Positions 1,401 to 16,654 of a stretch of DNA of 64,000 nt are shown here, one piece after another (position 1 is the first letter of the stretch; each line of letters opens with the position of its first letter). The stretch lies in NCBI GenBank assembly GCA_903926565.1, contig CAIYJU010000135.1:6751-70750 (forward strand). Direction: 5' to 3'. The notes under the pieces are model-generated. The model had not been told where the DNA came from. It did not search any database and saw nothing but the letters and a program-made list of their open reading frames with translations. The position numbers and the translations under genes were made by a program. This DNA is from an uncultured Bacteroidales bacterium. Its GTDB lineage: Bacteria > Bacteroidota > Bacteroidia > Bacteroidales > FEN-979.

Positions 1401-1778
1401 TTACATCAGGTCACCCAGCGGACCCAGGTTGATGTTCAAATCCCGATCGGTGAGGTTAAAATGTTTTTTCAGCTCCTCCATCTTCATTTCCAGCTTCATC
1501 AGCGTTTCGCCAAGCCGTTCAATTTCCTCTTCCGATAACGAACCGCCGTCGACTCTTCGCATGGCCTGTTTTTCAACCAGTTTCCGGATAAGTTCGACAA
1601 GGGTAAGCACCAGTTTCGCCAGTCCGGAATCTGCATTTTCTGGCGTAAGCTTCAGTCTTGAATCTTCAGCTTTGGATGCCAGTTTACCGATCTCCTCTGA
1701 TATTCCATCGAACGACCCGGTGTTGAACAGTATTTTATTTTCACTCATGCAAGGACTATTGAATTTTGATTTCAACAA
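1401..1778 (-). CDS. gvpK: gas vesicle protein GvpK
   Basis: GLAKLVLTLVELIRKLVEKQAMRRVDGGSLSEEEIERLGETLMKLEMKMEELKKHF...LGPLGDLM is the GvpK signature. The true start is probably the internal Met at 1748 (MSENKIL), which removes the 23-nt overlap with the upstream gene. Confidence 0.9.
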   Translation of the reverse strand: MLKSKFNSPCMSENKILFNTGSFDGISEEIGKLASKAEDSRLKLTPENADSGLAKLVLTLVELIRKLVEKQAMRRVDGGSLSEEEIERLGETLMKLEMKMEELKKHFNLTDRDLNINLGPLGDLM

Positions 1779-2511
1779 AATTATAGGGGGGCCAGGGCCC
1801 GGTAAGGATAAAGTTTAATCCCTGATGTTTATTCTGCAAATCCTGAACGGAGCGGACCAACTGAATTTCAACATCTTTATCAAGTAAAAATACTGCATCG
1901 ATGATGTTCTTTGCAGAGGCCATTTTTTTAAATCTGCTTTCCGCGCATAACAGGGCAAGACTTACGGTGATCTCTGCAATGACTGTATCAGCGTAATCAA
2001 CAAGCAGCTCTTCAAGCCTGTGTTCTTTCAGCTTTTTATTGATATATTCCCGATACGCTGAAATTGTGATGCCCGGGTCAGCGGGCGGGCTGAGGACAGC
2101 CTCTGATTTCATCCGCAGTTCTGCCGCCAATTTTTCGGAATCACAGAATATTTTCAATCCGAATTCTTGTTTGTTTTCAACCCGGTCGAGGTTCTGAAGA
2201 AATTCATCCCGGTTACGGACAAGCATTTCCAAGATTGCACCGGATGATTCCAGGGTTGAACCAAATCGCATTGGAAGAACCGGATACCGCTGAAACAGCG
2301 CATCGATCACGCCGGCATACTCAATGGCCAGAGATTTGTCTGCAGTAAAATCACATCTTTCTATCTCGCCGGTTACGGCAGCAATTTCATCATGGAAAAC
2401 AGCAAACAAATCAGCACCTCCAAGGCCTTTCATCCCCGCCAGAAGTGAAGTTAGCCCGTCCTGATTGTGTTTGACAGATACAACGGCATATATCATCTTC
2501 TGCATTTCCAT
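1756..2511 (-). CDS. GvpF/GvpL family gas vesicle protein (paralog 5)
   Basis: 251 aa. The N-terminus (IYAVV...) and the C-terminal LTGPWPPYNFV motif are typical of GvpF/L. Confidence 0.85.
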   Translation of the reverse strand: MEMQKMIYAVVSVKHNQDGLTSLLAGMKGLGGADLFAVFHDEIAAVTGEIERCDFTADKSLAIEYAGVIDALFQRYPVLPMRFGSTLESSGAILEMLVRNRDEFLQNLDRVENKQEFGLKIFCDSEKLAAELRMKSEAVLSPPADPGITISAYREYINKKLKEHRLEELLVDYADTVIAEITVSLALLCAESRFKKMASAKNIIDAVFLLDKDVEIQLVRSVQDLQNKHQGLNFILTGPWPPYNFVEIKIQ

Positions 2512-2523
2512 GTTCAGGTTGAT

Positions 2524-2730
2524 TTATTTCTCCGTGATCATCTTGCCCGCCTTCAACTGTTCCATGGTCTCGACAGAACTCAGCATTAATTTTAAGCCGA
2601 GATAAACCAGGTCAACATCTGCAACCGAGATAACAATATCGCCCGTGAGGATGACACCTTTGTTAAGGACCCTGTCGAGCAATTCAAGGATGGTAATGTC
2701 CTTCGAACGGTCAATTACATTATCATACAT
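2524..2730 (-). CDS. small GvpA-family protein (GvpS/GvpM/GvpJ-like minor structural protein)
   Basis: 68 aa. ITILELLDRVLNKGVILTGDIVISVADVDLVYLGLKLMLSSVE matches the GvpA-fold core. The start shares 1 nt with the upstream stop (TAATG). Confidence 0.85.
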   Translation of the reverse strand: MYDNVIDRSKDITILELLDRVLNKGVILTGDIVISVADVDLVYLGLKLMLSSVETMEQLKAGKMITEK

Positions 2731-3524
2731 TACTGATTCTCTTTAATGGAGACAAAGCTGAATGGCGGCCACGGCCCGGTTCCTTCAAGTTCAAAACCGA
2801 TCCCGGCATACTTTTTCTGTAACCGGCCAAGGAGTGAAACAAATTCAATGGTTTTATCTTTAGGCAGAAGAAATGCGGCATTCAGGATCATCTTGTCATT
2901 TCTTCCCGAAAATTCTTTTGGAATAATATTAATCAGTTTGGCAGATGCGCTGAGTGCATTAAATTCATTGAAAAATTCCTGTCCGTAACTCTTGGATAAC
3001 CTGTCGATTTCAAGGTCAATCAAATCCGCTTTTTTCCTGGTTAACAGGAACGCCTTCCCCGGCGAGCTTGCCATAATCTGGTATTCGAGTTCGGCTGCTT
3101 CATGGCTCAAATTATCTATCTGTGCCTTCATGACATCCTGGTTACAGTAAAGTTTGACTGCCCATTCCTCCTTCCATTCAACAAGAAGGAGGTTTTGCAC
3201 AATTGCATTTGAGTATTCGCCCATGAATTTTTTCAGTGATTCTTCAGACCGATAGATTGTACCAAAATTGAAAGGAATGACGGTATGGTCCTCCATCAGC
3301 ATGCTGATAATCGTAACATGCGACCGAACATTCAAATCGAGCCAGGCAAGATCTGACAACTTTTTTTTCAGGTTTTCTTCCGAAAAGTCGCATTCCTGAA
3401 CATTTTTCACAACGGCGTAAAACCCTCCAGAACTTACAACCTGCAAACCTTCAAACTCCGGCCTTCCGCCAGGTTCTGACATACTTGCGGAAACGCAATA
3501 GGCATAAATCAATTCCCTGTTCAT
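2730..3524 (-). CDS. GvpF/GvpL family gas vesicle protein (paralog 4)
   Basis: 264 aa. LIYAYCV... N-terminus, MILNAAFLLPKDK motif, C-terminal GTGPWPPFSFV. Confidence 0.85.
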   Translation of the reverse strand: MNRELIYAYCVSASMSEPGGRPEFEGLQVVSSGGFYAVVKNVQECDFSEENLKKKLSDLAWLDLNVRSHVTIISMLMEDHTVIPFNFGTIYRSEESLKKFMGEYSNAIVQNLLLVEWKEEWAVKLYCNQDVMKAQIDNLSHEAAELEYQIMASSPGKAFLLTRKKADLIDLEIDRLSKSYGQEFFNEFNALSASAKLINIIPKEFSGRNDKMILNAAFLLPKDKTIEFVSLLGRLQKKYAGIGFELEGTGPWPPFSFVSIKENQ

Positions 3525-3577
3525 TACATTGGTAAAATTAGCCCCGTTACAACAACATTTCCTGTAATTAAATGCGT

Positions 3578-3850
3578 CTATTGAGAAACGCTGTCCATCC
3601 CTTCAAAGGAATTGAGTCTTTCGAAGGCGGTTATTTCCAGTTTATCATCCATCTTCACCAAATAAAAAAGCCTTACCTGTTTCGGCGGGAGGTTCATTGA
3701 TTTCAGGAAGGAATCATCCTCATAAACCTCGGCGATGGAATTCCAGTTCTCCTGAACCTTCTCAATTTTAATAACCGTAACGTCGTAACAGTTAATATTC
3801 TCTTTCAGGAAATTAACCACTGTTTTTTTCACATCGATAATATTGCTCAT
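3578..3850 (-). CDS. GvpO-like small protein
   Basis: 90 aa. The segment VTVIKIEKVQENWNSIAEVYED...LFYLVKMDDKLEITAFERL has the same layout I recall for haloarchaeal GvpO (..EGWRTVVEVVER...YEITLD..G.VTGYE..). Called from similarity by eye only. Confidence 0.5.
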   Translation of the reverse strand: MSNIIDVKKTVVNFLKENINCYDVTVIKIEKVQENWNSIAEVYEDDSFLKSMNLPPKQVRLFYLVKMDDKLEITAFERLNSFEGMDSVSQ

Positions 3851-3918
3851 TGTCTCCTCCAGTTATTTTATGTTTTCATAGTCACAGGGATGGTTTGCGG
3901 GTCTGAATGTATCCGGTG

Positions 3919-4155
3919 CTATCTGTTTTGTTTATCGGCTCTGATCCTTTCAAGTAATTTCAACAACTCGTCTTCTCTTTCGTCGTATTCCTCTTCGTTA
4001 ATTTCATCCATTTCAAATTTCAGCTGCAGGGCCATCAGCCTCTCCTTGATGGCTCCTTCATCCGACATTTCCCTGTCGATCACTTCATTTATTTTCTTCC
4101 CGATAAAAATAACTCCTTTTAACGGAGCCAACAGGATGTCGTCAATTAAAAACAT
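3919..4155 (-). CDS. gvpG: gas vesicle protein GvpG
   Basis: 78 aa. MFLIDDILLAPLKGVIFIGKKINEVIDRE...EINEEEYDEREDELLKLLE is the GvpG pattern. 1-nt gap to the upstream gene. Confidence 0.8.
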   Translation of the reverse strand: MFLIDDILLAPLKGVIFIGKKINEVIDREMSDEGAIKERLMALQLKFEMDEINEEEYDEREDELLKLLERIRADKQNR

Positions 4156-4156
4156 G

Positions 4157-4939
4157 TTAAACTCCTTTAGTCTGGATTACAAGGTTGACAAAATTATAGG
4201 GAGGCAGCGTTCCGACGTATTTGAACGTCATCAATTTCCCGTATTTTTCGTCGAGGTCGGTCACGGCCTTGTCGAAGTCCGGCTCCACCGTGTTTTTTAT
4301 GAGAAATGCCGCGTTAAGTATCATCATTTCGCCATAATTGTCGTTGATTTTCTGGTCGTCTGAAAGCGGAGTAAGAACATCCATGATCATGTTTTTGTAA
4401 TTTCCCGTCTCCTTCTTCAGCGCTTCGGCAACCATTTCGCCAATTTTCATGCGCTGATAATGTGTTTTATCGACGGGCAGGTTGATCAGTTTTCCGCGCA
4501 ATGTTTTTATTTCATCATATTTTTCAATGATACTTTCGTACAACGGGGCTTCATGTGCAAGTACCTTCAGGCCCAGTTCCTTCTTCCCATCCATTTTAAG
4601 AAGAAGGTCGTCAAATTTTTTATATTCCTTTGCCAGGATGTTCAGAAGGCCTGAATCATCGTCATATTCGGAAATGGTTGAAAACCGCACCGGGAGCACG
4701 GTGAATTGCTTCATCACCTCCTCCAGCACCTTTTCATGCGTTGTCATGTTAACCCTCCTGGCTTCATATTGTATGACCGGCGAATTACTTACAACAGCAG
4801 TGACATCCTTGTAATTGATGCCATACACCCGGTCGGAGCGGACACCAATTCCGATGGGTCCGAATTCGATCGGGCCGGAATGCCTGATAATCCCGTAAAT
4901 GTACTTTCCTTCCTTTGGTATTCCAGCTGCTTCGCTCAT
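4157..4939 (-). CDS. GvpF/GvpL family gas vesicle protein (paralog 3)
   Basis: 260 aa. KYIYGII... N-terminus, MILNAAFLIKN motif, C-terminal GTLPPYNFVNL. Confidence 0.85.
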   Translation of the reverse strand: MSEAAGIPKEGKYIYGIIRHSGPIEFGPIGIGVRSDRVYGINYKDVTAVVSNSPVIQYEARRVNMTTHEKVLEEVMKQFTVLPVRFSTISEYDDDSGLLNILAKEYKKFDDLLLKMDGKKELGLKVLAHEAPLYESIIEKYDEIKTLRGKLINLPVDKTHYQRMKIGEMVAEALKKETGNYKNMIMDVLTPLSDDQKINDNYGEMMILNAAFLIKNTVEPDFDKAVTDLDEKYGKLMTFKYVGTLPPYNFVNLVIQTKGV

Positions 4940-4961
4940 ATAATGATTCGATTTATATTAG

Positions 4962-5735
4962 TTACAATTCCCATTTTTCAGGAAATATTTTAAGGTCAAT
5001 AAAATTAAAGATCGGCAGGGGTGCGGTATAAACAAAGTCGCTCCGATCCTGGTAAGTCGCGCCAATACCGGCCATGATGTTGTCAAATTCGATCTCCCTG
5101 CCGCTGTTGACCAGGAAGGCAGTATTCATGAACACCGCATCGCTGCTTGTTTTATTGTGCTTATATTCGAACACCGACCGGCGAAATGCATCAATAATGT
5201 TGTCGGACTCCTCCGCTTTCTTTTCAAGCAGAAGGCGTTCGACCATATGACCCGCTTCGTCTATCTTCATGTTCCTCTCCTTTGAGTCGCCCAGTACTTC
5301 AATTTCAGCCCTGAGCTTTTGAAGTTCAACGTGTTGCCGGTCGATTTCCTGGTAGATGACACCCATGTTTTTCCAGGTTCCCCGCACATTCAGTTCCACC
5401 TTGTTTTCGAATTGCTTCAGCAGTTCCATAAACTCACTGTACCTGCGGTTCAGGAGATTCCTGATCTCATCCGGGGTTGCTGCGATGGTGCCGAACCTGA
5501 TGGGCAGGATGCTTCTGAATTCCTTCATCACCTCTTCTATCACTTTCTGGTGGGCCAGCATGTTTTCGGGGTTGACGACAAACCGACTTAGCGGATGATC
5601 ACTCACCACCATGCACAAGCCTTCGAACCCGATGGTTGAGACAAGGTCTGCACGTCCGCCCACGCCTATCGGCCCCAGGTTGATGTCATAATCTGATGCA
5701 ATGATGCAATAAATGTATTTTCCGTCGCGCTGCAT
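4962..5735 (-). CDS. GvpF/GvpL family gas vesicle protein (paralog 2)
   Basis: 257 aa. KYIYCIIAS...GPIGVGGR...VSDHP, MNTAFLVNS motif, C-terminal PLPIFNFIDL. Confidence 0.85.
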   Translation of the reverse strand: MQRDGKYIYCIIASDYDINLGPIGVGGRADLVSTIGFEGLCMVVSDHPLSRFVVNPENMLAHQKVIEEVMKEFRSILPIRFGTIAATPDEIRNLLNRRYSEFMELLKQFENKVELNVRGTWKNMGVIYQEIDRQHVELQKLRAEIEVLGDSKERNMKIDEAGHMVERLLLEKKAEESDNIIDAFRRSVFEYKHNKTSSDAVFMNTAFLVNSGREIEFDNIMAGIGATYQDRSDFVYTAPLPIFNFIDLKIFPEKWEL

Positions 5736-5736
5736 A

Positions 5737-6777
5737 TTAATCCTTTATTTTAACCAAAATCAAATTCCCGGCAACATCTTCCTTCGCCAGGGATATTACT
5801 TCATCTTTAACCGACTGTCTGACTGAAGCAGCATAGTCAAGCAGGGAGTGGTAGGCCTCAAGGATGATGTTGAAATTCTCAGTATCACTGCTGTCGTGAT
5901 TGTTGTCGGGATGAAATTGCTTTGCTTTTTCCAGGTAGGCCCTTTTTATCTCCTGCTCGGATATTTTCTCCCTGACACCCAGCGCTTTCCGTGCCTGATC
6001 TACCTTGTCGGCATTCAACGCAACAACCTCCAGCGTGAAAAAACTGTAACAGGGCAACGGGCCTATCAGTTTAAAATTCAGGACCCCCTGGTATTTTTCG
6101 TCAAGCATGTCAATTGCATGCTCAAACTTTTCCCTTTTATTCCTGTTTATTAAAAATGCAGAATTTAAGATCATCTCGTCATTCATCACTTCATGCATTT
6201 TGATATCGAGGCCGTAAGGGGATAATACATCCAGCACCTTCAGCTCAACATCCTTATTTTCGGTATCCAACCTCTCTTTTATCAGCATACCTACTTTTAC
6301 CTGATCAACTTTTGTCAGGGCATGATTGTTTTGCAAGAGTTCGACTTTCAGCGCATTGATTTCGGGATGGGTGGAAATATCCTGAAGCAGCCCGGGAAAA
6401 TCACCCCATGTTACAACCAGGTCTATTTCAGTCAGGTACTCAATCTTCTTCAGGGCATCTATGATCAGATCATGACCACAGGTAAGAATTTTGAGCACCT
6501 CATCCGTTGAAGTTACGATGGTGCCAAGCCTCATTGGGAGGATCATGGTGAATCCCTTCCGCTGGAGTTCTTCGATGGTTTCCTGGTGATGGACCAGCAA
6601 ATAAGCCAGGGATTCCCTGTCTGAAAAATTGACTTCGGAGCTGTCTCTTTCTGAAACAATGGCCGAAATATTTTGAAACGTAACCGCATAAACTCCCGAA
6701 TTTTCAAGAGTTTGAAATTGGGTTGTACCATAAAAATTGGGCACAATCCCATAGATGTATAATCCTTTTGCTGTCAT
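5737..6777 (-). CDS. GvpF/GvpL family protein fused to a C-terminal DnaJ-type J-domain
   Basis: 346 aa. Residues 1-250 are GvpF/L-like (LYIYGIV..., MILNSAFLINRNK, GPLPCYSFFTL). Residues about 258-320 read ARKALGVREKISEQEIKRAYLEKAKQFHPDNNHD..ENFNIILEAYHSLLD, a J-domain. The HPD tripeptide is at nt 5913-5905, verified on the DNA. Confidence 0.8.
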   Translation of the reverse strand: MTAKGLYIYGIVPNFYGTTQFQTLENSGVYAVTFQNISAIVSERDSSEVNFSDRESLAYLLVHHQETIEELQRKGFTMILPMRLGTIVTSTDEVLKILTCGHDLIIDALKKIEYLTEIDLVVTWGDFPGLLQDISTHPEINALKVELLQNNHALTKVDQVKVGMLIKERLDTENKDVELKVLDVLSPYGLDIKMHEVMNDEMILNSAFLINRNKREKFEHAIDMLDEKYQGVLNFKLIGPLPCYSFFTLEVVALNADKVDQARKALGVREKISEQEIKRAYLEKAKQFHPDNNHDSSDTENFNIILEAYHSLLDYAASVRQSVKDEVISLAKEDVAGNLILVKIKD

Positions 6778-6839
6778 ATCAGTTGGTTGGTTGAATAAAC
6801 CCTCCGGGTATTAAAAACCCGGAAGGTTTCGGGTTCCGC

Positions 6840-8999
6840 TTACTTCTTCGTTATGTTTTGCTTCAATACCAGTTGTATTGCTTCTTCAAAATGTGTTTCC
6901 AAAATTGATATTTCACCAGAATTCACCTTGCCATTGTCCCTGTTTTTTTCAATCAGTTCCCGGATGGCAAGCATTGCAGCTTTGCGGCATACAAATTCGA
7001 TATCCGACCCCGTCATGGTATCGGTTTTAAGAGCGAGCTTCGCGATGTTTACTTTTTTCCCAAGGGGTTTGTTCCTTGTATGTATATGGAATATCTGCTC
7101 CCTGGTTTTCACATCCGGCAATGGCAATTCGAAGATCAGGTCGAACCGGCCGCTTCTGAGCAGGGCGGGATCTATCAAATCGATCCTGTTGGTTGCTGCG
7201 AGTACAATAACGCCTTTCAAATCCTCAATCCCATCCATTTCTGTAAGAAACTGCCCGATAACTCTTTCAATTACGCCGGAACCTGAGCCATCGTTGCTGC
7301 GCCTGGGTGTCAGACTGTCAATTTCGTCGAGGAAGAGGATGCATGGAGATGCCTGCTTTGCCATCCTGAAGAGTTCGCGTACCCCTTTTTCCGATTCACC
7401 GATATAACGGCTCAGGATCTGGGGCCCTTTTACTGAAATGAAATTCACGCCGCTTTCGCTTGCCAGCGCTTTGGCCAGGTATGTTTTGCCGGTTCCCGGT
7501 TTCCCGTGAAGGATAATTCCCTTGGGGGGCCGTGTATCAGCTTTCTTAAACAGTTCAGCATACTGGAGCGGCCATTCCACTGTCTCTTTCAGTGCCTCCT
7601 TTATTTCGTCAAGGCCGCCAACATCTTCCCATTTCACATCAGGCACCTCTACGAAAACCTCCCTGATTGCCGAAGGTTCCACCTCTTTCATGGCATCCGT
7701 AAAGTTGTCCATGGTCACTTCCAGCGCCATCAATATTTCGTATGGAATTTCGGCCATCGCAAAATCGATTTGCGGCAATATTTTCCGCAGGGCGGTCATG
7801 GCGGCTTCCCGGGCCAGCGCTTCAAGATCGGCACCCACAAATCCGTGGGTGATTTCGGCCAGTTTTTCCATATCCACATCCATCGACAGCGGAATCCCCC
7901 GGGTGTGGATGAGGAGAATTTCCAGCCTTCCCTTTTTGTCGGGGATGGAGATTGAAATTTCACGGTCAAACCTTCCGGGTCTTCTCAGTGCGGGATCAAT
8001 GGAATTAGGGATGTTGGTCGCGCCGATCACGATGACCTTCCCTCTCGATTCAAGGCCATCCATCAATGACAACAGTTGGGCGACAACACGTTTTTCAACC
8101 TGTTTTTCTCCCCCCATCTCCTCCCTTTTGGGGGCAATGGCATCAATTTCATCGATAAAGATAATGGAAGGCGCATGGGCCTGGGCCTCCTCAAAAAGTT
8201 TACGGATCCGGCCTTCGCTCTCCCCGTAAAATTTACCCATGATCTCCGGGCCGGAGATGTTGATAAAATAGGCATCTGTTTCCTGTGCAACCGCCCTGAC
8301 AATGAGTGTTTTTCCGGTTCCCGGAGGCCCGTAGAGGAATACCCCCTTGGGTGGCTGGATCCCCAGCCGGTCAAATATTTCCGGATACTTGAGGGGAAGT
8401 TCAATCATCTCCCTGATACGCTGAACCTGGTTGCCAAGTCCGCCGATATCCTCGTAAGAGACCTTGCTCCGGTGCTCTCCGTCCTGCTTTGCCAGTTCAA
8501 GCTGAAAAATGGTATTCGGGTGGATCAGCACGATCCCCTCCGGGTTGACACCGGTAACCGTATAATTCACTGAGCGTGAGCCGAATAAATTCGCCCTCAC
8601 TTTATCGCCTTTTATCACAGGCAGCCCACTGAACAAAGAACCGATATATTTTGAGTCATCAGCCTTGAACAAAGAGCCTGATTTAGTGTCTGGCTTTAAC
8701 TTTATTTTTATCGCCTGGCGGAAGGTTGCTTTTTCAACAGTCACTTTCTCATCGATCCCTGCCTGGGCATTTTCCCTGGTAATCCCGTCAATTTGAATGA
8801 GGCGCTTGTCCCTGTCTTCCGGATAACAAGGCATGATTTTTACCGGTGTTGCACGCTTGCCTTCAATCACAACAAGGTCGCCACTTTCCAGGTCAAGCAA
8901 TTTCATGTCTTTCGGGTCGATCCTTGCGATGGCCCTTCCAACGTCCTTTACCAGGGCTTCCTTTACACGGAGGATTATGTCGCTTTTTGTTTTAGTCAT
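6840..8999 (-). CDS. Cdc48/VCP/VAT-like AAA+ ATPase (Cdc48-N domain plus two AAA+ modules)
   Basis: 719 aa. Cdc48-type N-domain ([40 protein letters not shown]...). Two Walker A motifs ([18 protein letters not shown]) and two Walker B motifs ([20 protein letters not shown]). Confidence 0.9.
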
Positions 9000-9008
9000 T
9001 GCTGAAAT

Positions 9009-9944
9009 TTATTCAAACAGGCACATTTTCAACTTATTCAGAGCATCCAGCCCTTTTATCTCTTCTGCGAACCTTTGCACTTCAACTTTGTTTAAATGAC
9101 GAAAGGTTTCGTTGATGCCGGTTAAATAAGGCAATTGGCTGGCTTTGCTCCGCCTGCAGAATCCGCATTCATCCGAAACCATCACATTGTTTACAATGAG
9201 CTGTCGTGCAACGATACCAGAACTGGCAAGAATCGACAGCAATCTTTCTGTTTCCCTCATTGCCATTGCTTCCGGAATGCAAACCGGGATAAATTCACAC
9301 CGGGTTGCATCGCGCAGGATGTTTTCAATCCTTTTGACAGTCCTTTTCAGGCTGAGTAAAAGCACATCCACGTCATCATGCTGGTAGGATCCTGAAAAAC
9401 TGGTGATCATGTACCGGTATTTCCACCTCATTCTTGCAGCCACCTTGATCCAGTCGTCCAATAACTTCGGAGAAGATATCAACCTTAAGGCATGCCCGGT
9501 GGGTGCAGTATCCACAACATATTTATCGTATTCCCCCTGTTCCATGAAATCGGTGATGGTTTTAAAACTCATCACCTCGTCGATGCCGGGAATCGACAGG
9601 GCAAGCATCTCTTCAATATCCTGGTTATCAAGATTTGTTGAAGTTTCGAGCAACTTTTTCAGTTCAGCCTGATGCGCACTGATAAATACTGAAAGCGCCT
9701 CGTCGGCAAATACTTCAATCGCAGAGAGGTTGGGGCTGCCATCTACTTTAACTACCTGGAATCCAATTTTCTGACCAAGGCAATCCGACACGGAATGCGC
9801 CGGATCAGTTGAGATAAGCAATGTTTTAAAATTTTCAGCCAGTGACATGGCTGTGGCAACGGCACAACTGGTTTTTCCAACACCGCCTTTTCCGCCAAAA
9901 ATGAGAAGTTTCAGGTCGCTGTTATCTAAGCCCTTCAGTCCCAT
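9009..9944 (-). CDS. ArsA/Get3(TRC40)-family P-loop ATPase
   Basis: 311 aa. Deviant Walker A GGKGGVGKTS, STDPAHSVSD, switch II DTAPTGHALRL, and a Get3-style CxxC (SDECGFCRR). 4-nt gap to hsp20 and 9-nt gap to the cdc48-like gene. Confidence 0.85.
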   Translation of the reverse strand: MGLKGLDNSDLKLLIFGGKGGVGKTSCAVATAMSLAENFKTLLISTDPAHSVSDCLGQKIGFQVVKVDGSPNLSAIEVFADEALSVFISAHQAELKKLLETSTNLDNQDIEEMLALSIPGIDEVMSFKTITDFMEQGEYDKYVVDTAPTGHALRLISSPKLLDDWIKVAARMRWKYRYMITSFSGSYQHDDVDVLLLSLKRTVKRIENILRDATRCEFIPVCIPEAMAMRETERLLSILASSGIVARQLIVNNVMVSDECGFCRRSKASQLPYLTGINETFRHLNKVEVQRFAEEIKGLDALNKLKMCLFE

Positions 9945-9948
9945 TGCG

Positions 9949-10467
9949 CTATTTTTTTATCCTGATCTCAAGGATGCCGTTTGTAAATTTATGCCTTAGA
10001 TTTTTCCTTTCGGCTTTTTCAGGAAGCAGCACTTCCTTGCGGTATGACCTGCTTTTGTTGACTGCTGAAATTTCAAGGATATCTTCTTTCAAATCAATAA
10101 CAATGTCATTTTCCTCGATTCCCGGCATTTCTGCAATAATCACAAGTTCATTCTTTTCATTAAAGATGTCGGTAATGGGTTCCCGTTCTTCATCCACTTT
10201 GGGTCCCTCGGGTGTTTTTTTGATATTGCCGAAAGTTTCTACTTTCGGGCTTCCGCCAACTGCCGTGTTTATTGTAAAGCCATAGACACCTTTCATTCCT
10301 TTTTTGATGTGGTCAAAATTGAGCTCCCCTTCCTTTTTAATGCCACCCTTTTCATCGAGTTTCCCTGCAAGGTCAACAAGTTTCTCAATACCTTTGAACA
10401 GATCACCAAGTCCGAAAAATCCGGTATCGGCTTCGTCCTTTTTTTTATTATTCTTATCGTTGTCCAT
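9949..10467 (-). CDS. Hsp20/alpha-crystallin family small heat-shock protein (GvpH-position protein)
   Basis: 172 aa. C-terminal alpha-crystallin domain ELVIIAEMPGIEENDIVIDLKEDILEISA...RKEVLLPEKAE...KFTNGILEIRIKK. Confidence 0.8.
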   Translation of the reverse strand: MDNDKNNKKKDEADTGFFGLGDLFKGIEKLVDLAGKLDEKGGIKKEGELNFDHIKKGMKGVYGFTINTAVGGSPKVETFGNIKKTPEGPKVDEEREPITDIFNEKNELVIIAEMPGIEENDIVIDLKEDILEISAVNKSRSYRKEVLLPEKAERKNLRHKFTNGILEIRIKK

Positions 10468-10529
10468 TGTGAATCATGTTAATACGGTTTATAGAAAAAC
10501 TATTCCAGCCTCCGCCTGAACGGGGGAAG

Positions 10530-10829
10530 TTACTCCGGCCTGTTCATCGCCTCCAGTTTCTCCAGACGCGACACCAGCTCTTCCTGGTGCTGCATCAGCT
10601 CCTTCTCCCTGGCTTTTGTTGAAAGGTACGTATCTTCCTGCCACCAGTTGATCCCCATCTCCATCGCCTTGTCGACCGAAGCGATCAGCAACCTGATTTT
10701 GATGGTCAGCAGATCAATATCCGCTATCTGAATTTTTATATCTCCTGCAATTACGATTCCCTTGTCGAGGACTCTTTCAAGAATATCGGCAAGACCTGTC
10801 GCCTGAATGGAGTGGGTAGGTTCTGACAT
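10530..10829 (-). CDS. gvpJ: gas vesicle protein GvpJ (GvpA family with C-terminal extension)
   Basis: 99 aa. LADILERVLDKGIVIAGDIKIQIADIDLLTIKIRLLIASVDKAMEMGINWW is the GvpJ-type core. Confidence 0.85.
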   Translation of the reverse strand: MSEPTHSIQATGLADILERVLDKGIVIAGDIKIQIADIDLLTIKIRLLIASVDKAMEMGINWWQEDTYLSTKAREKELMQHQEELVSRLEKLEAMNRPE

Positions 10830-10839
10830 TGCATTTTTT

Positions 10840-11154
10840 TTAATAATCTATTGACATGGTCTTCCATGCTTTCTCATCATCCTTCTTTGGTTTTTTACTC
10901 TTTTCTGCAGGTTTGACGGAATGCATGTCCCCGGCTTTTTCATCATAATAGGCCTGGATCTCTTTCAGCCTGTCCTGGATGATTTCAAGTCTCAGTAAGA
11001 TCCGGACCTCTTCACTTTTCAGCCGGGTTCTCTCCTTTTCGAACATGTACAATTTTATAAAATCCGAATCTTCCTTGTTTGGAATACCCGATTTAACGAC
11101 ATTCTGCATGCTCTTGATGCTCTGAAGTCCCTTTAGTGCAGTTGATATTGGCAT
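10840..11154 (-). CDS. small coiled-coil protein directly downstream of gvpN (possible GvpV-position analog), function unknown
   Basis: 104 aa. Heptad-like central segment (LYMFEKERTRLKSEEVRILLRLEIIQDRLKEIQ) and a Lys-rich tail. Tightly packed in the operon. No family recognised with confidence. Confidence 0.55.
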   Translation of the reverse strand: MPISTALKGLQSIKSMQNVVKSGIPNKEDSDFIKLYMFEKERTRLKSEEVRILLRLEIIQDRLKEIQAYYDEKAGDMHSVKPAEKSKKPKKDDEKAWKTMSIDY

Positions 11155-11182
11155 GACATTGATTTTTTAATGCGGATGGATG

Positions 11183-12118
11183 TTATTGCGCAATTTTTAA
11201 ACTGGTGTATTGTTCTATCAGTTCGTTCACGATGAATTTCACCTTTTCCTGGTTGGTTTTTGAGCCAATCCTGCTGGTTTCTGACGTAAGAATATCCTGG
11301 CAGATTTTCCGGAACATATCTTTTGATTTCGAGGGTGTTGTTTTCAGGGTTGCCAGTGTTTTGGCAATCATGATGGAACCGCGGATGGTCGGATCGAATT
11401 CCGTTTTCCCTGATTCACGCAAACCTCTCACAATTTTAACGATAATTTCGGTATCCTTTAACGACAATTGCGATTTGGCCCTGGTAATCTGCAATTCGGT
11501 TTCATAGTCGAAATGGTCCAGGTCCATGGTCACCATGCGGTCGCGCAGTGCATCCTGCGTGCGGTTAACACCGGCATACTCTTCAGGGTTTGACGTAAAG
11601 ATGGCACGGAATTCAGGGTGTACCTTCATATAGTAATCCTCCTCCTTTGCTGCCGATGTGCTTAACATCCGCTCCTGAAGAATCGGAAGCAGGATATTGT
11701 TGGCCTCAGGACGTGAACGCGTAAATTCATCGTAGATCAGGGTGAACCCGTTTTTCACTGCGATGGTTAAACGGTTGTTCACCCATTGCTTGGTCATGTC
11801 CTCTTCATACTTATGAACAGAATGGATGAATTTGTCGTCAAGCTTTTTATATTTATACCCCTGTTCACTTCCGATCAAATCGGAAGTTTTATACTCGGCA
11901 TCACCATGGATAATGACAACAGGCCGGCCGATTTTACTTGCCAGGTGCATGGCTACCGTCGTTTTCCCGGTACCTGAAGGCCCCCTGAAATGAACCGGGA
12001 ATCCAGCCTGGATATACGTAAGGCCGCGGCTGGTGATGTCCCTTATGTAATCCGTTTCTACAAAATTGGACATCGGCTTCAGTTCAAGCACGGTATTCAT
12101 CTCATTGTTGTTGCTCAT
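11183..12118 (-). CDS. gvpN: gas vesicle protein GvpN (MoxR/CbbQ-like AAA+ ATPase)
   Basis: 311 aa. FVETDYIRDITSRGLTYIQAGFPVHFRGPSGTGKTTVAMHLA... and Walker B LIYDEFTRS are typical GvpN features. Confidence 0.9.
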   Translation of the reverse strand: MSNNNEMNTVLELKPMSNFVETDYIRDITSRGLTYIQAGFPVHFRGPSGTGKTTVAMHLASKIGRPVVIIHGDAEYKTSDLIGSEQGYKYKKLDDKFIHSVHKYEEDMTKQWVNNRLTIAVKNGFTLIYDEFTRSRPEANNILLPILQERMLSTSAAKEEDYYMKVHPEFRAIFTSNPEEYAGVNRTQDALRDRMVTMDLDHFDYETELQITRAKSQLSLKDTEIIVKIVRGLRESGKTEFDPTIRGSIMIAKTLATLKTTPSKSKDMFRKICQDILTSETSRIGSKTNQEKVKFIVNELIEQYTSLKIAQ

Positions 12119-12163
12119 TGTTGGTATAGTTTGTGCAAATGTGCTGGTTAATTTTGATTTGTA

Positions 12164-12343
12164 TTAAAAAGGCAGGTTCGGCAGCTGCTTCAGCGTCTCC
12201 TCCCAGATGGTCCTGGCTTCCTCAATCTCCTTTGTTATCTCTTCCCTTGCTGTCAGGAACGCGATCTTCCTTTCCCTGAACCTTTCCAGTGCAGCCTGCC
12301 GTTTGATCATGCTGTTCCTGATACCCGCTCCGACGTTTTTCAT
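12164..12343 (-). CDS. unlisted 59-aa ORF between the zinc-finger gene and gvpN (hypothetical)
   Basis: Below the ORF-track length cutoff. Hand translation: MKNVGAGIRNSMIKRQAALERFRERKIAFLTAREEITKEIEEARTIWEETLKQLPNLPF, stop TAA at 12166-12164. Same strand as the operon, 15 nt after the upstream stop and 45 nt before the gvpN ATG. Confidence 0.35.
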   Translation of the reverse strand: MKNVGAGIRNSMIKRQAALERFRERKIAFLTAREEITKEIEEARTIWEETLKQLPNLPF

Positions 12344-12358
12344 TTTCAGATACCCTGA

Positions 12359-12673
12359 TCAGGCGCCAAACCCTTTGCCTTTGCATTGCGTGCACGGCAG
12401 GTTATCTCCTGATTTGCCAGTCCCTTTGCATTTCAGGCACACATTGCTGCCGGCAACGTGATTGCTCCCTTTTCCGCTACACACAATACACGGCACCCTT
12501 GCTCCCAGCGGGTTTTTACCGGACCCGGCACAAAAAACGCATTTCATCAAGGGTTTCTCAACATTCACACGTCCGAGGCCATTGCATGCCAGGCAATGTG
12601 AGATTGAGGAAAGCAGGTCAAAAGGATCCTTGCCTGTGCCGCTGCAAAACGGGCAATTAAAAACTTCTATCAT
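12359..12673 (-). CDS. stand-alone DnaJ-type cysteine-rich zinc-finger protein (six CxxCxGxG repeats)
   Basis: 104 aa containing CPFCSGTG, CLACNGLG, CVFCAGSG, CIVCSGKG, CLKCKGTG and CTQCKGKG. This is the CxxCxGxG repeat of the DnaJ central domain, with no J-domain or C-terminal domains. Confidence 0.8.
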   Translation of the reverse strand: MIEVFNCPFCSGTGKDPFDLLSSISHCLACNGLGRVNVEKPLMKCVFCAGSGKNPLGARVPCIVCSGKGSNHVAGSNVCLKCKGTGKSGDNLPCTQCKGKGFGA

Positions 12674-12713
12674 GGGGCAAAATCATTTGGAAAATGAATG
12701 ACGAAGAACCGGG

Positions 12714-13922
12714 TTATTTCAACGGGAAGTAAATGTTGTCAATTTTCTGCACTTTACCCTCGTCGAGCAAACCTTTGGCGGTAAAGCCAAGTTTCATGCG
12801 TGTTTCTCCCAGTGGTGCTTCCATCTCCGAGATCTTTACGCCCTTGGGATGTTTATTAATAAAATCCAGCACCTTATCTTCAAGTTTCAGGGGCTCTTCC
12901 TTAAATGTGGCAAATGCAAGAACTTCCTGGGCCGGAACGGCACTTACTGCCTCAGCCGGGGCTGCCTTTGCAGGGGCTGCAGGGGCCTCTTTTTTCGCCT
13001 CCTGTTTTTCAGCTTTCTTCGGTGCCTGTTTGGGTGCGGGAACAACGCCAGTTTTCCTGATATGGTCCATCGCACTTTTCATTTTATTCCATTCGGCCGA
13101 TGCCTCAACCCGGTTTTGCAGCAGATCATCCAGCATTGCACCGGTTGATTTCTGTACATCCCTGACCTCTTTCCGGATATCTTTAATAGAGACATGAATG
13201 CCTTTCATGATTGCATTAAAATCGCTGATCCGTTCGTTTTCGCCTTTGGCAAGATCTTTTCTCAGTTTCTGGGCCATTTTCTGGTTTTCCCTGCCGATTT
13301 CCGACAATCTTTTCTGGAACCCGGAAAGCAGGGTCCTCGTGTACTCAACCCTTTCTCCAAGGTTCTTGGCAAGTTCCGCTCTCAGTTCTGCCGACATGTC
13401 CTGATGTTCCTTTTCAAACCGGTCGAGCATATCATTCGTATTCAGGAAAATTGCCGAAACTTCATCATTGATACTTTTGATATCAGCATTGATGTTTGTC
13501 ATGAGGGCATCAAACTCCTTCATACGTGTTTTTTCATTTTGCGCCCGTCCGGCTCTTTCTTCAGCAAAGGACTTCCCAAGTTCCTCAGCCATCTGCGACC
13601 GCTCAACGGTAAATTCATTGATCATGTTAAACGTGGAAGTTTGAATCGCCACTACTTCCTTCTGGATGGAGGCAATTGTTCCATGGATTCCTGTCATTAA
13701 TCCCTTGAAGTTGCCCAGCCGTTCTTTCTCCCCGCGGGCGAGGCCTTTTCTTAATGCAGCAGCATTTGCATTTAAAGCGGCAGCCATCTCCTGGTGGTCC
13801 TTGCGGAAACCGTCAAGCGTTATCTGCACATCGTTAACAAGTTCTTCATTTTCCCTGATGCGCTGCCTGAATGATGCAAGCAACTCTTCTGTCAGGTTCT
13901 TCATGTCTGATGCTAGTCCCAT
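12714..13922 (-). CDS. repeat-containing coiled-coil protein with Pro/Ala/Lys linker and small C-terminal globular (winged-helix-like?) domain; candidate non-canonical GvpC analog
   Basis: 402 aa. Internal repeats are visible by eye: RKGLARGEKERLGNFKGLMTGIHGTIASIQKEVVAIQTST vs RKDLAKGENERISDFNAIMKGIHVSIKDIRKEVRDVQKST vs RAQNEKTRMKEFDALMTNINADIKSINDEVSAIFLNT. Also FRKDHQEMAAAL vs FEKEHQDMSAEL. These are followed by APKQAPKKAEKQEAKKEAPAAPAKAAPAEA and a roughly 60-aa tail. Confidence 0.75.
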   Translation of the reverse strand: MGLASDMKNLTEELLASFRQRIRENEELVNDVQITLDGFRKDHQEMAAALNANAAALRKGLARGEKERLGNFKGLMTGIHGTIASIQKEVVAIQTSTFNMINEFTVERSQMAEELGKSFAEERAGRAQNEKTRMKEFDALMTNINADIKSINDEVSAIFLNTNDMLDRFEKEHQDMSAELRAELAKNLGERVEYTRTLLSGFQKRLSEIGRENQKMAQKLRKDLAKGENERISDFNAIMKGIHVSIKDIRKEVRDVQKSTGAMLDDLLQNRVEASAEWNKMKSAMDHIRKTGVVPAPKQAPKKAEKQEAKKEAPAAPAKAAPAEAVSAVPAQEVLAFATFKEEPLKLEDKVLDFINKHPKGVKISEMEAPLGETRMKLGFTAKGLLDEGKVQKIDNIYFPLK

Positions 13923-13964
13923 GTTGTTATCTCCTATTTTAGAATTATTGATATGTTACCTGAA

Positions 13965-14621
13965 TTAATTGATCTCCTTGATAATTTGATTTTTTATGCT
14001 TTTTATATCTTTTACCTGGATCTGATCGCCTTTTTCGAGCAAACTTTCCAGGCACTCCATCATCCTGCCGTGCATGTTCTGAAAATCCATGAAGGTCTTC
14101 ATTACTGTTTCCTTCCTCATTTCCTGTACTTTAGAAACCTGGGAAAGTTGCTCCTTGATGATGTTGATTTTTTCGGTGGCATCCTGCGATGTAATGTCCC
14201 TGATGCCGAGCAGGCTTAATTTAAGCGACTGGGCAGTCTCTTTCTGGGATTCGATAAATGAGAGGAACAAAATTTCAGCGGCCCGTTCTTTTTCGTCGAG
14301 CGCGCAAAGAATGCCTGACATCATCGAATAATAATCCTTTTTACGGAGGGATCCGTTTTTTGCCATAATTTCACAAATTCTGAAATTCAGGACTTCCCGC
14401 TCCTTTTTCAGATCGTTGAGAGAATTATGCACGTTGTCGAACAGGCAGTGCGATGATTCTGTAATATTTTCAGATGACTGGAAAGCTGTTTGAATTTTTT
14501 GAATGCGGGTTTCGTAGGAGGTTATGATGTTGTCAAAAAAACCATCGATGTTTAATTCGGGCAGTGGATTCATTCTTGGTAGTTTATTTGCAGGTTTTCG
14601 GGAAAGATGACTTTTTGACAT
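13965..14621 (-). CDS. coiled-coil protein, distant paralog of the 402-aa repeat protein; function unknown
   Basis: 218 aa. Shares motifs with the neighbour: TSYETRIQK vs ASFRQRIRE, and MAKNGSLRKKDYYSMMSGI vs LAKGENERISDFNAIMKGI. It is the first gene after gvpA. The start may instead be the Met at codon 17. Confidence 0.7.
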   Translation of the reverse strand: MSKSHLSRKPANKLPRMNPLPELNIDGFFDNIITSYETRIQKIQTAFQSSENITESSHCLFDNVHNSLNDLKKEREVLNFRICEIMAKNGSLRKKDYYSMMSGILCALDEKERAAEILFLSFIESQKETAQSLKLSLLGIRDITSQDATEKINIIKEQLSQVSKVQEMRKETVMKTFMDFQNMHGRMMECLESLLEKGDQIQVKDIKSIKNQIIKEIN

Positions 14622-14764
14622 TCCCTCATGATAATTATCGGGCCGGGGGTTGGTGTGATCGGGATACTGCAGGCGTGGAAAAAAGAAATTCTTGGTAACT
14701 CATGCTTTCGTGAATAATCAGGGAAGGATGTTTTAGCAAGAATAGCTGTTAATCTGAATGCAAA

Positions 14765-14968
14765 TTAAGCTGCTTTTGCAGTTAATCCGATGGCTTCAGC
14801 ATACTTCAGGTATGTTTCAACAGAGGCAACAACGATTCTTGCTTCAATTGCAAGCAATTCGATACCTACCAAAGAAACTCTTACCCATGCATCAACTACA
14901 ACACCTTTGTCAAGGATACGGTCGATAACTTCAACGAGGCTTGATGATCCGATAGTCTTTTCTACCAT
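14765..14968 (-). CDS. gvpA: major gas vesicle structural protein GvpA
   Basis: 67 aa. [55 protein letters not shown] is near-canonical GvpA. An SD-like GGAG sits about 9 nt upstream of the ATG, which is unusual for this window. Confidence 0.97.
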
Positions 14969-15254: not shown

Positions 15255-16646
15255 TTAATCTTCGCTTTTATTCCCCGGAATATTGTACTTTTTCATTTTC
15301 CGGCTCAGGGCATCGCGGTGTATTCCGAGGGCATCTGCTGCAGCCTGCTGGTTGAACTTGCAAGCCAGCAGCACCTTACGGATCATCTTTATCTCAATCG
15401 TTTTCAAATTTGCTGAATCTGCCTCAGGAACATGCAATTCCGGCTTCGGTCCGTTAAGCGGGAAATCACGGACTTCAAGCCTGTTGCCTTTGCACAGGAT
15501 GGCTGCTCTTTCGACCAGGTTTCTAAGTTCCCGCACATTTCCGGGAAAATCGTATTTCACGAGCACATCAACGGCCTCCTTCGAAACATGGAGGGCAGGT
15601 TTGCTGAATTTCGAGGCATACACTTCAATAAAATAGTTCAGGAGAGGCTTGATATCTTCTGGTCTCTCCCGTAATGCCGGGATGTGAATGTGCAGTGTAT
15701 TGAGCCGGTGGAGGAGGTCGAGCCGGAATTTCTTCTTTGCAACCCTCTTATTAATATCGTGATTGGTTGCTGAAATAATGCGGAAGTTGGTCCGGATCTG
15801 GGCAGTATCGCCAACACGGGTTATCACCTTCTCTTCAGAAGCGCGCAGGATCTTTGCCTGAAGGTTGAGTGGCATATCCGCAATTTCATCCAGGAAAAGT
15901 GTCCCCCCGTTGCATACTTCAAAAAAACCCATTTTATCGGAGACGGCACCGGTAAATGAGCCTTTCTTATGACCAAAAAATTCACTTTCAAGAAGTGTTT
16001 CGGTAATGGCGCTGCTGTTTACCGCACCAAAAATATGATCTTTCCTGTTACTCGAATAGTGTATGATCCTTGCTATGTTCTCCTTGCCAGTTCCACTCTC
16101 CCCGGTAATCAGCACATTGGCATCAGGGTAATTCGCTGCTGCAAGGGCACTTTCAAAAACCTCGAGGATCCGGGGACTGACACCAATAAACTGCCGGTCG
16201 ATTTTCTCTTCAAGGGACTTCGAGATCAATGAGTTCTTCTCCTCCATCTGCTTCAGCCGTCGCTGCATCTGAAGATATTTCTGCGTCCGTTCTATGGCAA
16301 TCTGTATGTCAAGAAACCTGAATGGTTTGCGCAGGTAATCGAATGCCCCGAGACGCATGGCCTTGATTACGGTATCCATGTCACCGTGTGCAGAGATGAC
16401 GATAACCTCCATGAAAGGATAGTCACTTTTTACCTCTTTCAGAATATCGAGTCCATTCACACCCGGCAGGCGCACATCGAGGATGAGCAGGTCAATTGCG
16501 TGGATACTCATGATTTTTTTTCCTTCTGCAGCCGTGTTGGCCTCATACGAATCAAATTCCGAATCGACGAAAAATCCGCTTAACTCTTCCGTAAATTGCT
16601 TTTCATCGTCGAGGATCAGGATCTTGATCTTATTTTTCGCTTCCAT
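15255..16646 (-). CDS. sigma54-dependent Fis-family response regulator (NtrC-type: REC + AAA+ + HTH)
   Basis: 463 aa. REC domain (ILILDDE...DLLILDVRLPG), sigma54-interaction core (GESGTGKENIARIIH, GSFTGA loop, FLDEIADM) and C-terminal HTH (QQAAADALGIHRDALSRKMKKY). Confidence 0.92.
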   Translation of the reverse strand: MEAKNKIKILILDDEKQFTEELSGFFVDSEFDSYEANTAAEGKKIMSIHAIDLLILDVRLPGVNGLDILKEVKSDYPFMEVIVISAHGDMDTVIKAMRLGAFDYLRKPFRFLDIQIAIERTQKYLQMQRRLKQMEEKNSLISKSLEEKIDRQFIGVSPRILEVFESALAAANYPDANVLITGESGTGKENIARIIHYSSNRKDHIFGAVNSSAITETLLESEFFGHKKGSFTGAVSDKMGFFEVCNGGTLFLDEIADMPLNLQAKILRASEEKVITRVGDTAQIRTNFRIISATNHDINKRVAKKKFRLDLLHRLNTLHIHIPALRERPEDIKPLLNYFIEVYASKFSKPALHVSKEAVDVLVKYDFPGNVRELRNLVERAAILCKGNRLEVRDFPLNGPKPELHVPEADSANLKTIEIKMIRKVLLACKFNQQAAADALGIHRDALSRKMKKYNIPGNKSED

Positions 16647-16654
16647 GATGCCAG

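Follow-up and report, generated by a model that had tools for sequence, protein, structure and literature searches.

A J-domain fused to a GvpF/L-type gas-vesicle protein points to a role for Hsp70 in gas-vesicle biogenesis or maintenance

How GvpA, a very hydrophobic and amyloid-like protein, is kept soluble and inserted into the growing gas vesicle is an open question. The gas-vesicle (gvp) cluster in a 64,000-nucleotide stretch of DNA from an uncultured Bacteroidales bacterium (hereafter the window) raises a related one: why should a protein of the GvpF/L type carry a J-domain? The gene concerned, a GvpF/L-J-domain fusion (FLJ), occupies 5737..6777 on the minus strand and encodes 346 residues; it is present in the list of open reading frames, and its two-domain architecture can be read from the sequence and from Pfam. 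Comparative sequence evidence makes it probable that the FLJ J-domain acts by way of Hsp70, in either the formation or the upkeep of gas vesicles.

An earlier note on this DNA had read the gene as a GvpF/L paralog with a J-domain at its C-terminus, and profile searches agree, with both Pfam families over their cutoffs. GvpL_GvpF (PF06386) matches residues 5-247 (6037..6765, minus strand) with 159.6 bits (E 1.8e-46, cutoff 23.6), a match that spans profile positions 1-244 of 245. DnaJ (PF00226) matches residues 265-314 (Pfam envelope, nucleotides 5836-5985) with 48.3 bits (E 1.1e-12, cutoff 27.8), about 20 bits over threshold, and scores 51.0 bits when the C-terminal 97 residues are scanned separately. 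The J-domain as a whole covers residues 258-320 (5818..6006, minus strand). Within it lies the HPD tripeptide, the motif with which J-domains trigger the ATPase of Hsp70: H289-P290-D291 at 5905..5913 on the minus strand, encoded by CAT (5913-5911), CCC (5910-5908) and GAC (5907-5905), exactly as the note had read it. Behind the J-domain stands a 26-residue C-terminal tail, ...SLAKEDVAGNLILVKIKD (residues 321-346; 5740..5817, minus strand). The translation finishes ...NLILVKIKD, with a TAA stop at 5739-5737, and the next GvpF/L gene begins at 5735, 1 base past that stop.

Is FLJ then a DnaJ, and is it alone in its cluster? The NCBIfam DnaJ models match only in the J-domain stretch, at profile positions of about 5-60, and the DnaJ equivalogs reach 24-39 bits against cutoffs of 338-619. 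Because the G/F region, the zinc finger and the DnaJ C-terminal domains are absent from the chain, FLJ is classed by its sequence as a J-domain protein of class C (type III), not as a full DnaJ. The cluster's remaining four GvpF/L paralogs (4962-5735, 4157-4939, 2730-3524 and 1756-2511, all on the minus strand; 251-264 residues; PF06386 at 156-202 bits each) have no DnaJ match in Pfam, so the extension is confined to the one paralog, as had been proposed. Against NCBIfam NF052351, the cyanobacterial GvpF equivalog, FLJ scores 75 bits and does not reach the cutoff of 350; its profile matches assign it to the GvpF/L superfamily, not to the cyanobacterial GvpF orthologues.

An AlphaFold2 model of FLJ, built on 45 family members, has a mean predicted local distance difference test score (pLDDT) of 89.9 and a predicted template-modelling score (pTM) of 0.81. 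The GvpF/L part resembles 6l5d and 4qsg, both crystal structures of GvpF (Foldseek E 4e-15 to 8e-14; template-modelling score 0.74-0.77, normalised to the target), and the C-terminal part matches the J-domains 2och, 4j7z, 9dyv and 1hdj with a Foldseek probability of 1.0. Superposition on the T. thermophilus DnaJ (4j7z) gives a root-mean-square deviation of 1.9-2.3 Å over 48-53 residues. The FLJ J-domain is 43-45% identical to 2och and 4j7z in the Foldseek alignments and 42% identical to that of E. coli DnaJ over 50 residues. A phmmer search of FLJ against the PDB agrees with both the GvpF matches (E 1e-16) and the J-domain matches.

The model contains the helices expected around an HPD loop: helix I at 256-266, helix II at 274-286 and a long helix III at 299-322. 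H289-P290-D291 aligns with H33-P34-D35 of E. coli DnaJ and lies between helices II and III, and the equivalents of E. coli DnaJ Y25, H33, P34, D35 and F47 are all retained. With its hidden Markov model E value of 1e-12, its 42-45% identity to solved J-domains and its retained HPD, the J-domain match is far beyond chance.

The earlier note had described the J-domain as tethered to the GvpF/L fold. The physical joining stands, and the flexibility that a tether implies does not fit the model. There, the last GvpF/L strand (248-253) runs into helix I at 256 after a junction of only 2-3 residues. The tail forms a short helix (332-336) and a beta-strand (340-345) with a pLDDT of 85-86, and hydrophobic-basic terminal strands equivalent to it are also present in distant family members. 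Because the junction is short, the tail strand is conserved and the pTM is high, the model suggests that the J-domain is docked rather than free-swinging.

A fusion seen in one metagenomic contig might also be an artefact, in which an assembly or sequencing frameshift has joined a GvpF/L gene to a small J-protein gene. We regard this explanation as refuted, because the fusion is conserved across hundreds of independent assemblies. Both Pfam domains are present in 120/120 of the best database homologs (58-94% identity, 344-360 residues), which were drawn from NCBI, JGI, ENA and Logan assemblies; the architecture of about 346 residues recurs in three genome scans (146, 460 and 255 stretches) and in isolate genomes, and the single-chain model is of high confidence. 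The HPD is retained in 118/120 of these homologs, the two exceptions being QPD and HTD. Mean column conservation among the 120 is 0.754 for the J-domain, 0.758 for the tail and 0.774 for the GvpF/L body, so that the J-domain and tail are as conserved as the body that carries them.

How widely is the fusion spread? The first genome scan, with one genome per species, yielded 146 confirmed FLJ loci, of which 80 were fetched as a Bacteroidota set. Nearly every one of the 80 carries a Bacteroidota label, with Prolixibacteraceae, Draconibacterium, Mariniphaga, Tangfeifania and Algoriphagus among them, and the closest relative in the scan is an uncultured Draconibacterium metagenome-assembled genome at 95% identity. 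An exhaustive search of 50%-identity cluster representatives found 203 at E <= 1e-30. The best 150 of the 203 share 27-57% identity with FLJ, are almost all 330-370 residues long and align through the J-domain, with the HPD intact in about 130.

Distant subfamilies extended this range. An 18-member alignment of distant FLJ proteins was too diverse for a genome scan and smaller alignments were used; two further scans gave 460 and 255 confirmed stretches. Chloroflexota carriers in these scans include Dehalococcoidia, Anaerolineae and the isolate Oscillochloris sp. ZM17-4. Further carriers belong to Desulfobacteraceae, Nitrospirota, Nitrospinota, Actinomycetota and Bacillota, and to Lentisphaerota, Omnitrophota, Planctomycetota, Elusimicrobiota, Ignavibacteriota, Latescibacterota, Atribacterota and others. 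A scan with a Desulfobacteraceae member returned 3 close loci, none of them from Desulfobacterium vacuolatum, whose cluster works in E. coli. The FLJ family is thus found in gvp clusters of more than 15 phyla; its carriers in culture include Flavobacterium sp. GSP27 and LS1P28 as well as Oscillochloris sp. ZM17-4.

Two more sets of loci were examined alongside the Bacteroidota set: a Chloroflexota-rich set of 80 and a third set of 79 from Lentisphaerota, Omnitrophota, Planctomycetota and others. We call a locus large if it spans 14 kb or more; there are 46 such loci in the Bacteroidota set, 40 in the Chloroflexota-rich set and 36 in the third set (122 in total). The third set has the J-domain in 78/79 loci and the HPD in 76 of those 78; the HPD is present in 63/79 loci of the Chloroflexota-rich set. 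Overall, about 90% of the FLJ family retains it.

To what extent are these fused proteins one lineage? Trimmed of its J-domain, the GvpF/L part of the window's protein reaches 112 bits or more (median 134) with 17/17 fused proteins sampled from other loci and phyla, whereas its top score against any J-less paralog is 83 bits. Because the trimmed domain scores the fused proteins above all J-less paralogs, FLJ forms, by this measure, a single orthologous group of great age, and the fusion itself is ancient. The window's protein is not peculiar to its genome; it is an ordinary member of a deep family.

If the J-domain of FLJ acts on an Hsp70, is there an Hsp70 within reach? When all fetched loci were scanned by signature and their open reading frames mapped, a DnaK-type Hsp70 was found on the same strand as FLJ and within 8 kb of it in 31/80 Chloroflexota-rich loci, and linked to FLJ in 22 of the 40 large ones. 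The chance of such a neighbour is about 1% per locus by a rough, uncomputed estimate that assumes 1-3 Hsp70 genes per few-Mb genome. All of the cluster Hsp70s are of the DnaK type (PRK00290 758-950 bits, cutoff 648). In Anaerolineales the order is GvpA-GvpA-x-GvpN-Hsp20-Hsp70-FLJ-GvpF/L-zinc fingers, and the Hsp70 stop lies about 20 nucleotides ahead of the FLJ start; in eight Chloroflexota-rich loci with this arrangement, Hsp70 sits in the slot held elsewhere by a Cdc48-type gene. In Dehalococcoidia, Hsp70 overlaps the end of the GvpJ- or GvpS-like gene before it, and Hsp20 and the Cdc48-type gene come after it. One Desulfobacteraceae locus also has an operon Hsp70. Throughout the clusters of the first 160 loci, FLJ is the only J-protein, bar one canonical DnaJ on the opposite strand.

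Nearer to the window, linked Hsp70 genes are found in only 3/80 loci of the Bacteroidota set. The isolate Flavobacterium sp. GSP27 has the window's gvp gene order and then a 601-residue Hsp70 five bases after GvpK, an arrangement shared by a 2.27-Mb metagenomic contig. The Bacteroidota cluster Hsp70s are tail-less DnaK paralogs of about 600 residues that end the gvp operon (L161 10001-11806, from Flavobacterium sp. GSP27; L162 10001-11788; L061 14764-16578). Housekeeping DnaK has a disordered C-terminal tail and ends in the DEVTDVDFEEVKDK motif, and these paralogs lack both, the tail entirely. They are about 75% identical to Bacteroidota housekeeping DnaK, with 11 fixed differences. A search from one of them retrieved a separate group of 595-615-residue DnaKs at 79-100% identity, with housekeeping DnaKs (637-645 residues) apart from it at <=79%.

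Did this gene travel with the cluster from other phyla? We rejected that possibility, given the identity of about 75% to the Bacteroidota's own housekeeping DnaK. The Bacteroidota cluster Hsp70 is also no closer than housekeeping Bacteroidota DnaK to the Chloroflexota cluster Hsp70s. Because the two kinds of cluster Hsp70 are not specifically related, their sequences indicate that Hsp70 has been recruited to gvp operons independently, at least twice. The presence of these genes inside the operons of relatives lends independent support, at the level of gene content, to the view that the J-domain serves to recruit Hsp70.

A family of 227-230-residue open reading frames (L061 14057-14740; L161 11819-12511; L148 9020-9685) has members beside Hsp70 in Bacteroidota. 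We considered it as an Hsp70 cofactor and rejected it: gvp clusters of Bacteroidota, Nitrospirota, Desulfobacteraceae and others contain it with or without Hsp70, and the window does not contain it.

A natural variant of the motif itself is found in a high-GC Chloroflexota clade (L086, L087, L094, L097, L099, L100, L105, L108 and L128), which keeps the J-like domain with the HPD replaced by QQR, EQR, VQR and similar. An operon Hsp70 is present in 7/7 large loci of this clade, and among the cluster Hsp70s these diverge most, sharing 43-48% identity with housekeeping DnaK versus 49-60% for the others. Residue R167 of E. coli DnaK is the one that contacts D35 of the DnaJ HPD. Its equivalent is replaced (Gly, Gly, Lys, Lys) in 4/9 Hsp70s paired with an HPD-less domain and in 0/18 paired with an intact HPD (Fisher p 0.007, a value that overstates independence, as the sequences are related). 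This pattern fits a J-Hsp70 pair whose members co-evolve.

Several observations weigh against a role through Hsp70. At the positions of DnaJ K26 and R27 on helix II, FLJ has L282 and E283. The helix does have basic residues, K278, R279, K284 and K286, and its pattern, AYLEKAKQFHPD, may resemble the one in functional polyomavirus T-antigen J-domains. The PF00226 match reaches only profile position 55 of 63, and a separate helix IV is missing from the model. The docked position suggested by the model also counts here. The HPD-less clade retains both the domain and an operon Hsp70, and because of this its domain has a role beyond canonical ATPase triggering: a J-domain of this family can persist without such triggering, in some other role. 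Linked Hsp70 genes are present in 25 of the 122 large loci over the three sets; in the third set, one of 79 loci and none of the 36 large ones has such a gene. The 64-kb window has no Hsp70, recognisable GrpE or full DnaJ, and the absence of a linked Hsp70 is the commoner state. Finally, Halobacterium, Anabaena, Priestia megaterium and Serratia are not known to use any J-domain Gvp protein in making their vesicles.

Some of these points would suit a purely structural explanation, in which a J-like module that does not activate Hsp70 stabilises the GvpF/L fold or mediates binding inside the Gvp complex or to the Cdc48-type ATPase. Retention of the domain without HPD, the compact and possibly docked module with its family-specific tail, the non-basic K26/R27 equivalents and the many clusters without a linked Hsp70 are all compatible with it. 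However, the HPD has no known role besides Hsp70 activation, and yet about 90% of the family has kept it over more than 15 phyla. Hsp70 has been recruited to the operon at least twice, and the very clade that lost the HPD keeps its Hsp70, with matching changes at the J-binding residue. We therefore consider the structural explanation very unlikely and continue with an FLJ that acts through Hsp70.

How might it do so? FLJ would be a class-C J-domain co-chaperone with the GvpF/L fold as its client-binding module. The GvpF/L body would hold a hydrophobic GvpA-family protein or an accessory complex, and the HPD loop would dock on ATP-bound DnaK and trigger hydrolysis. Hsp70 would then clamp the client at the assembly complex, where aggregation-prone shell subunits would stay soluble, and the client would be passed on, either into the growing vesicle or to the Cdc48-type AAA+ ATPase encoded beside FLJ. 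Hsp20, the zinc-finger protein and the Get3-like ATPase may serve as holdases or targeting factors, such that the neighbours of FLJ hold, unfold or deliver the client. Because the window has no Hsp70, the partner there would be the housekeeping DnaK or an unlinked paralog. The sequences and locus maps establish the domains, their conservation and the gene neighbourhoods; the binding of the J-domain to Hsp70, the nature of the client, and whether the step serves assembly, quality control, scaffold removal or recycling are inferred.

The direction matters, as the closest neighbour of FLJ also suggests the reverse process. The gene immediately upstream (6840-8999, minus strand) encodes a Cdc48-type double AAA+ ATPase with CDC48_N, CDC48_2 and two AAA domains, a protein not known from the model gas-vesicle systems. 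Loci with FLJ at a contig edge left aside, this gene lies directly upstream of FLJ in 70/76 Bacteroidota, 64/71 third-set and 21/71 Chloroflexota-rich loci. FLJ might direct Hsp70, together with this unfoldase and Hsp20, to dismantle: either to strip scaffold off nascent vesicles or to extract GvpA from collapsed or misassembled vesicles for reuse. The near-invariant adjacency in question, the co-occurrence with Hsp20 and the Anaerolineales loci in which Hsp70 fills the exact slot of the Cdc48-type gene would all accord with such a role, and there are parallels in the uncoating of clathrin by auxilin and Hsc70 and in disaggregation by small heat-shock proteins, DnaK and ClpB. However, FLJ lies within a biogenesis operon among GvpF/L, GvpG, GvpK and GvpN genes, the GvpF/L gene that follows seems to be coupled to it in translation, and sequence does not separate assembly from disassembly. 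Disassembly is compatible with action through Hsp70, and we think it a rather unlikely, though real, possibility.

Taken together with the other genes of the cluster, these observations allow a broader proposal, which we offer tentatively and whose chances, taken as a whole, we rate somewhat below even. Gas-vesicle biogenesis in most non-model phyla may be Hsp70-dependent and run by a cluster-encoded proteostasis machine. FLJ would load GvpA-type clients onto DnaK, either the housekeeping protein or the tail-less operon paralog, and the other parts would be the Cdc48-type unfoldase, the small heat-shock protein, the zinc-finger holdase and the Get3-like ATPase. In the HPD-less Chloroflexota clade, whose Hsp70 is divergent, the J-Hsp70 interface would have been rewired. 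Under the same proposal, compatibility with host chaperones would be a main reason that most gvp clusters fail in E. coli.

The practical interest lies in this last point. Gas vesicles are in use as acoustic reporter genes, and the match of chaperones is an evident variable to adjust when expressing them. Of 15 gvp clusters screened in E. coli, 10 gave no detectable vesicles, and the authors' suspicion was that further genes, outside the operons as annotated, may be needed (PMC10344784). Expression failure has also been tied to proteotoxic stress from the shell proteins (PMC12848028). A J-domain on the assembly hub, together with operon Hsp70s recruited at least twice, names DnaK as a concrete candidate partner. 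The known mechanistic work has been done on four or five model clusters, none with FLJ. Because the family is present across hundreds of uncultured aquatic and sediment bacteria in more than 15 phyla, the FLJ form of the machinery may be the commoner one in nature.

Comparison with characterised GvpF and GvpL proteins shows what is shared and what is new. The N-terminal ~250 residues of FLJ share the profile and fold of GvpF/GvpL (4QSG from Microcystis, 6L5D from Anabaena), and the gene lies, like theirs, in a gvp cluster beside GvpG, GvpK, GvpN and GvpA-type genes. In contrast, the J-domain and tail are on FLJ only, with no counterpart in any studied GvpF/L, and FLJ forms its own orthologous group apart from the J-less copies in the cluster. 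GvpF/L proteins are interaction hubs of vesicle assembly: in Halobacterium, GvpL binds every other accessory protein, and among the accessory proteins only GvpF binds GvpA (PMC7688916; PMC6107691).

FLJ can also be compared with two kinds of chaperone system. Class C J-proteins bring Hsp70 to one client or site, as in HscB-IscU-HscA, auxilin at clathrin, DjlA at the membrane and TopJ at the Mycoplasma terminal organelle. Like them, FLJ has an HPD J-domain joined to a specialised binding module, and as with HscB and HscA, the operon of some FLJ lineages includes a dedicated Hsp70. FLJ, which is known from sequence and a model, differs in that its targeting module is a GvpF/L fold, its J-domain is C-terminal, and helix IV is replaced by the long helix III and the family-specific tail. 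The second system is the triad of DnaK-DnaJ-GrpE, small heat-shock proteins and ClpB. The gvp cluster has Hsp20, a J-domain, a zinc finger and a double-ring AAA+ protein, with a DnaK-type Hsp70 in the clusters of relatives. However, its DnaJ modules are on two proteins, its AAA+ protein is of the Cdc48 type and not ClpB, no GrpE was identified in it, and its components are dedicated to an organelle cluster, not to general stress.

Part of this association is already in the literature. Castillo and Saier (2010, PMC2963123) described arsA and hsp20 in gvp clusters of Polaribacter irgensii, Pelodictyon luteolum and Geobacter uraniireducens, so the link of ArsA and Hsp20 with gvp genes has been on record since 2010. 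These clusters are of the same type as the one in the window, with several L/F paralogs (five in Polaribacter irgensii) plus arsA and hsp20, but DnaJ and DnaK each have 0 occurrences in the text of that paper. The Pfam and JGI pipelines already record the FLJ architecture, one JGI product name being "GvpL/GvpF/DnaJ domain", and NCBI names the protein GvpL/GvpF family. Within the full-text literature searched, which left most subscription journals outside, we found no description of a J-domain Gvp protein or of an Hsp70 in a gvp operon, and the family appears to be large and undescribed.

The remaining genes of the window's cluster place FLJ in its setting. The gvp genes lie on the minus strand from 1401 to 14968, and the whole gene set is conserved in related Bacteroidota loci. 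Directly upstream of gvpA, at 15255-20059 on the same strand, are a multi-PAS histidine kinase and a sigma-54-dependent response regulator, a pair that resembles GvrA and GvrB of Serratia. A sigma-54 consensus scan gave 5 one-mismatch matches in the window against 4.95 expected, none of them in the gvp cluster, and a generic promoter and terminator scan of the cluster was at chance level.

The cluster opens with GvpA (14765-14968). Two conserved proteins, which are also found in related loci, follow between gvpA and gvpN: one of 218 residues (13965-14621) with no Pfam match, and one of 402 residues (12714-13922) with an Ala/Pro/Lys-rich segment and only sub-threshold Pfam matches, some to helical-repeat families (apolipoprotein, DUF948). 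Both might be outer-surface, GvpC-like proteins. Next is a standalone DnaJ-type zinc-finger protein (12359-12673) of 104 residues with six CxxCxGxG motifs (PF00684 39.2 bits, cutoff 32.7). Its homologs occur in 36/46 large Bacteroidota loci, 23/40 large Chloroflexota-rich loci and 21/36 large loci of the third set, with up to five copies in Anaerolineales. Two modules of DnaJ, the J-domain and the zinc finger, are in this way divided over two genes of one cluster.

GvpN (11183-12118) and a GvpJ-like gene precede an Hsp20-like protein (9949-10467; PF00011 32 bits). The Hsp20 gene lies back to back with that of an ArsA/Get3-like ATPase (9009-9944; PF02374 251.6 bits), and each is present in 44/46 large Bacteroidota loci; the Cdc48-type gene and FLJ come after them. 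The order downstream of FLJ is two GvpF/L genes, GvpG, a weak GvpO-like gene, GvpF/L, a GvpA-like gene, GvpF/L and GvpK (1401-1778), then carA; all of these gvp genes are on the minus strand. The spacer between the Cdc48-type gene and FLJ contains a hairpin on the minus strand at 6790-6829, with 13 base pairs, a minimum free energy of -25 kcal/mol for an 81-nucleotide stretch and a z-score of -3.5 against shuffled sequences. By eye, an overlapping shorter hairpin followed by a U-run can also be drawn in this spacer, and it could be a terminator or attenuator within the operon.

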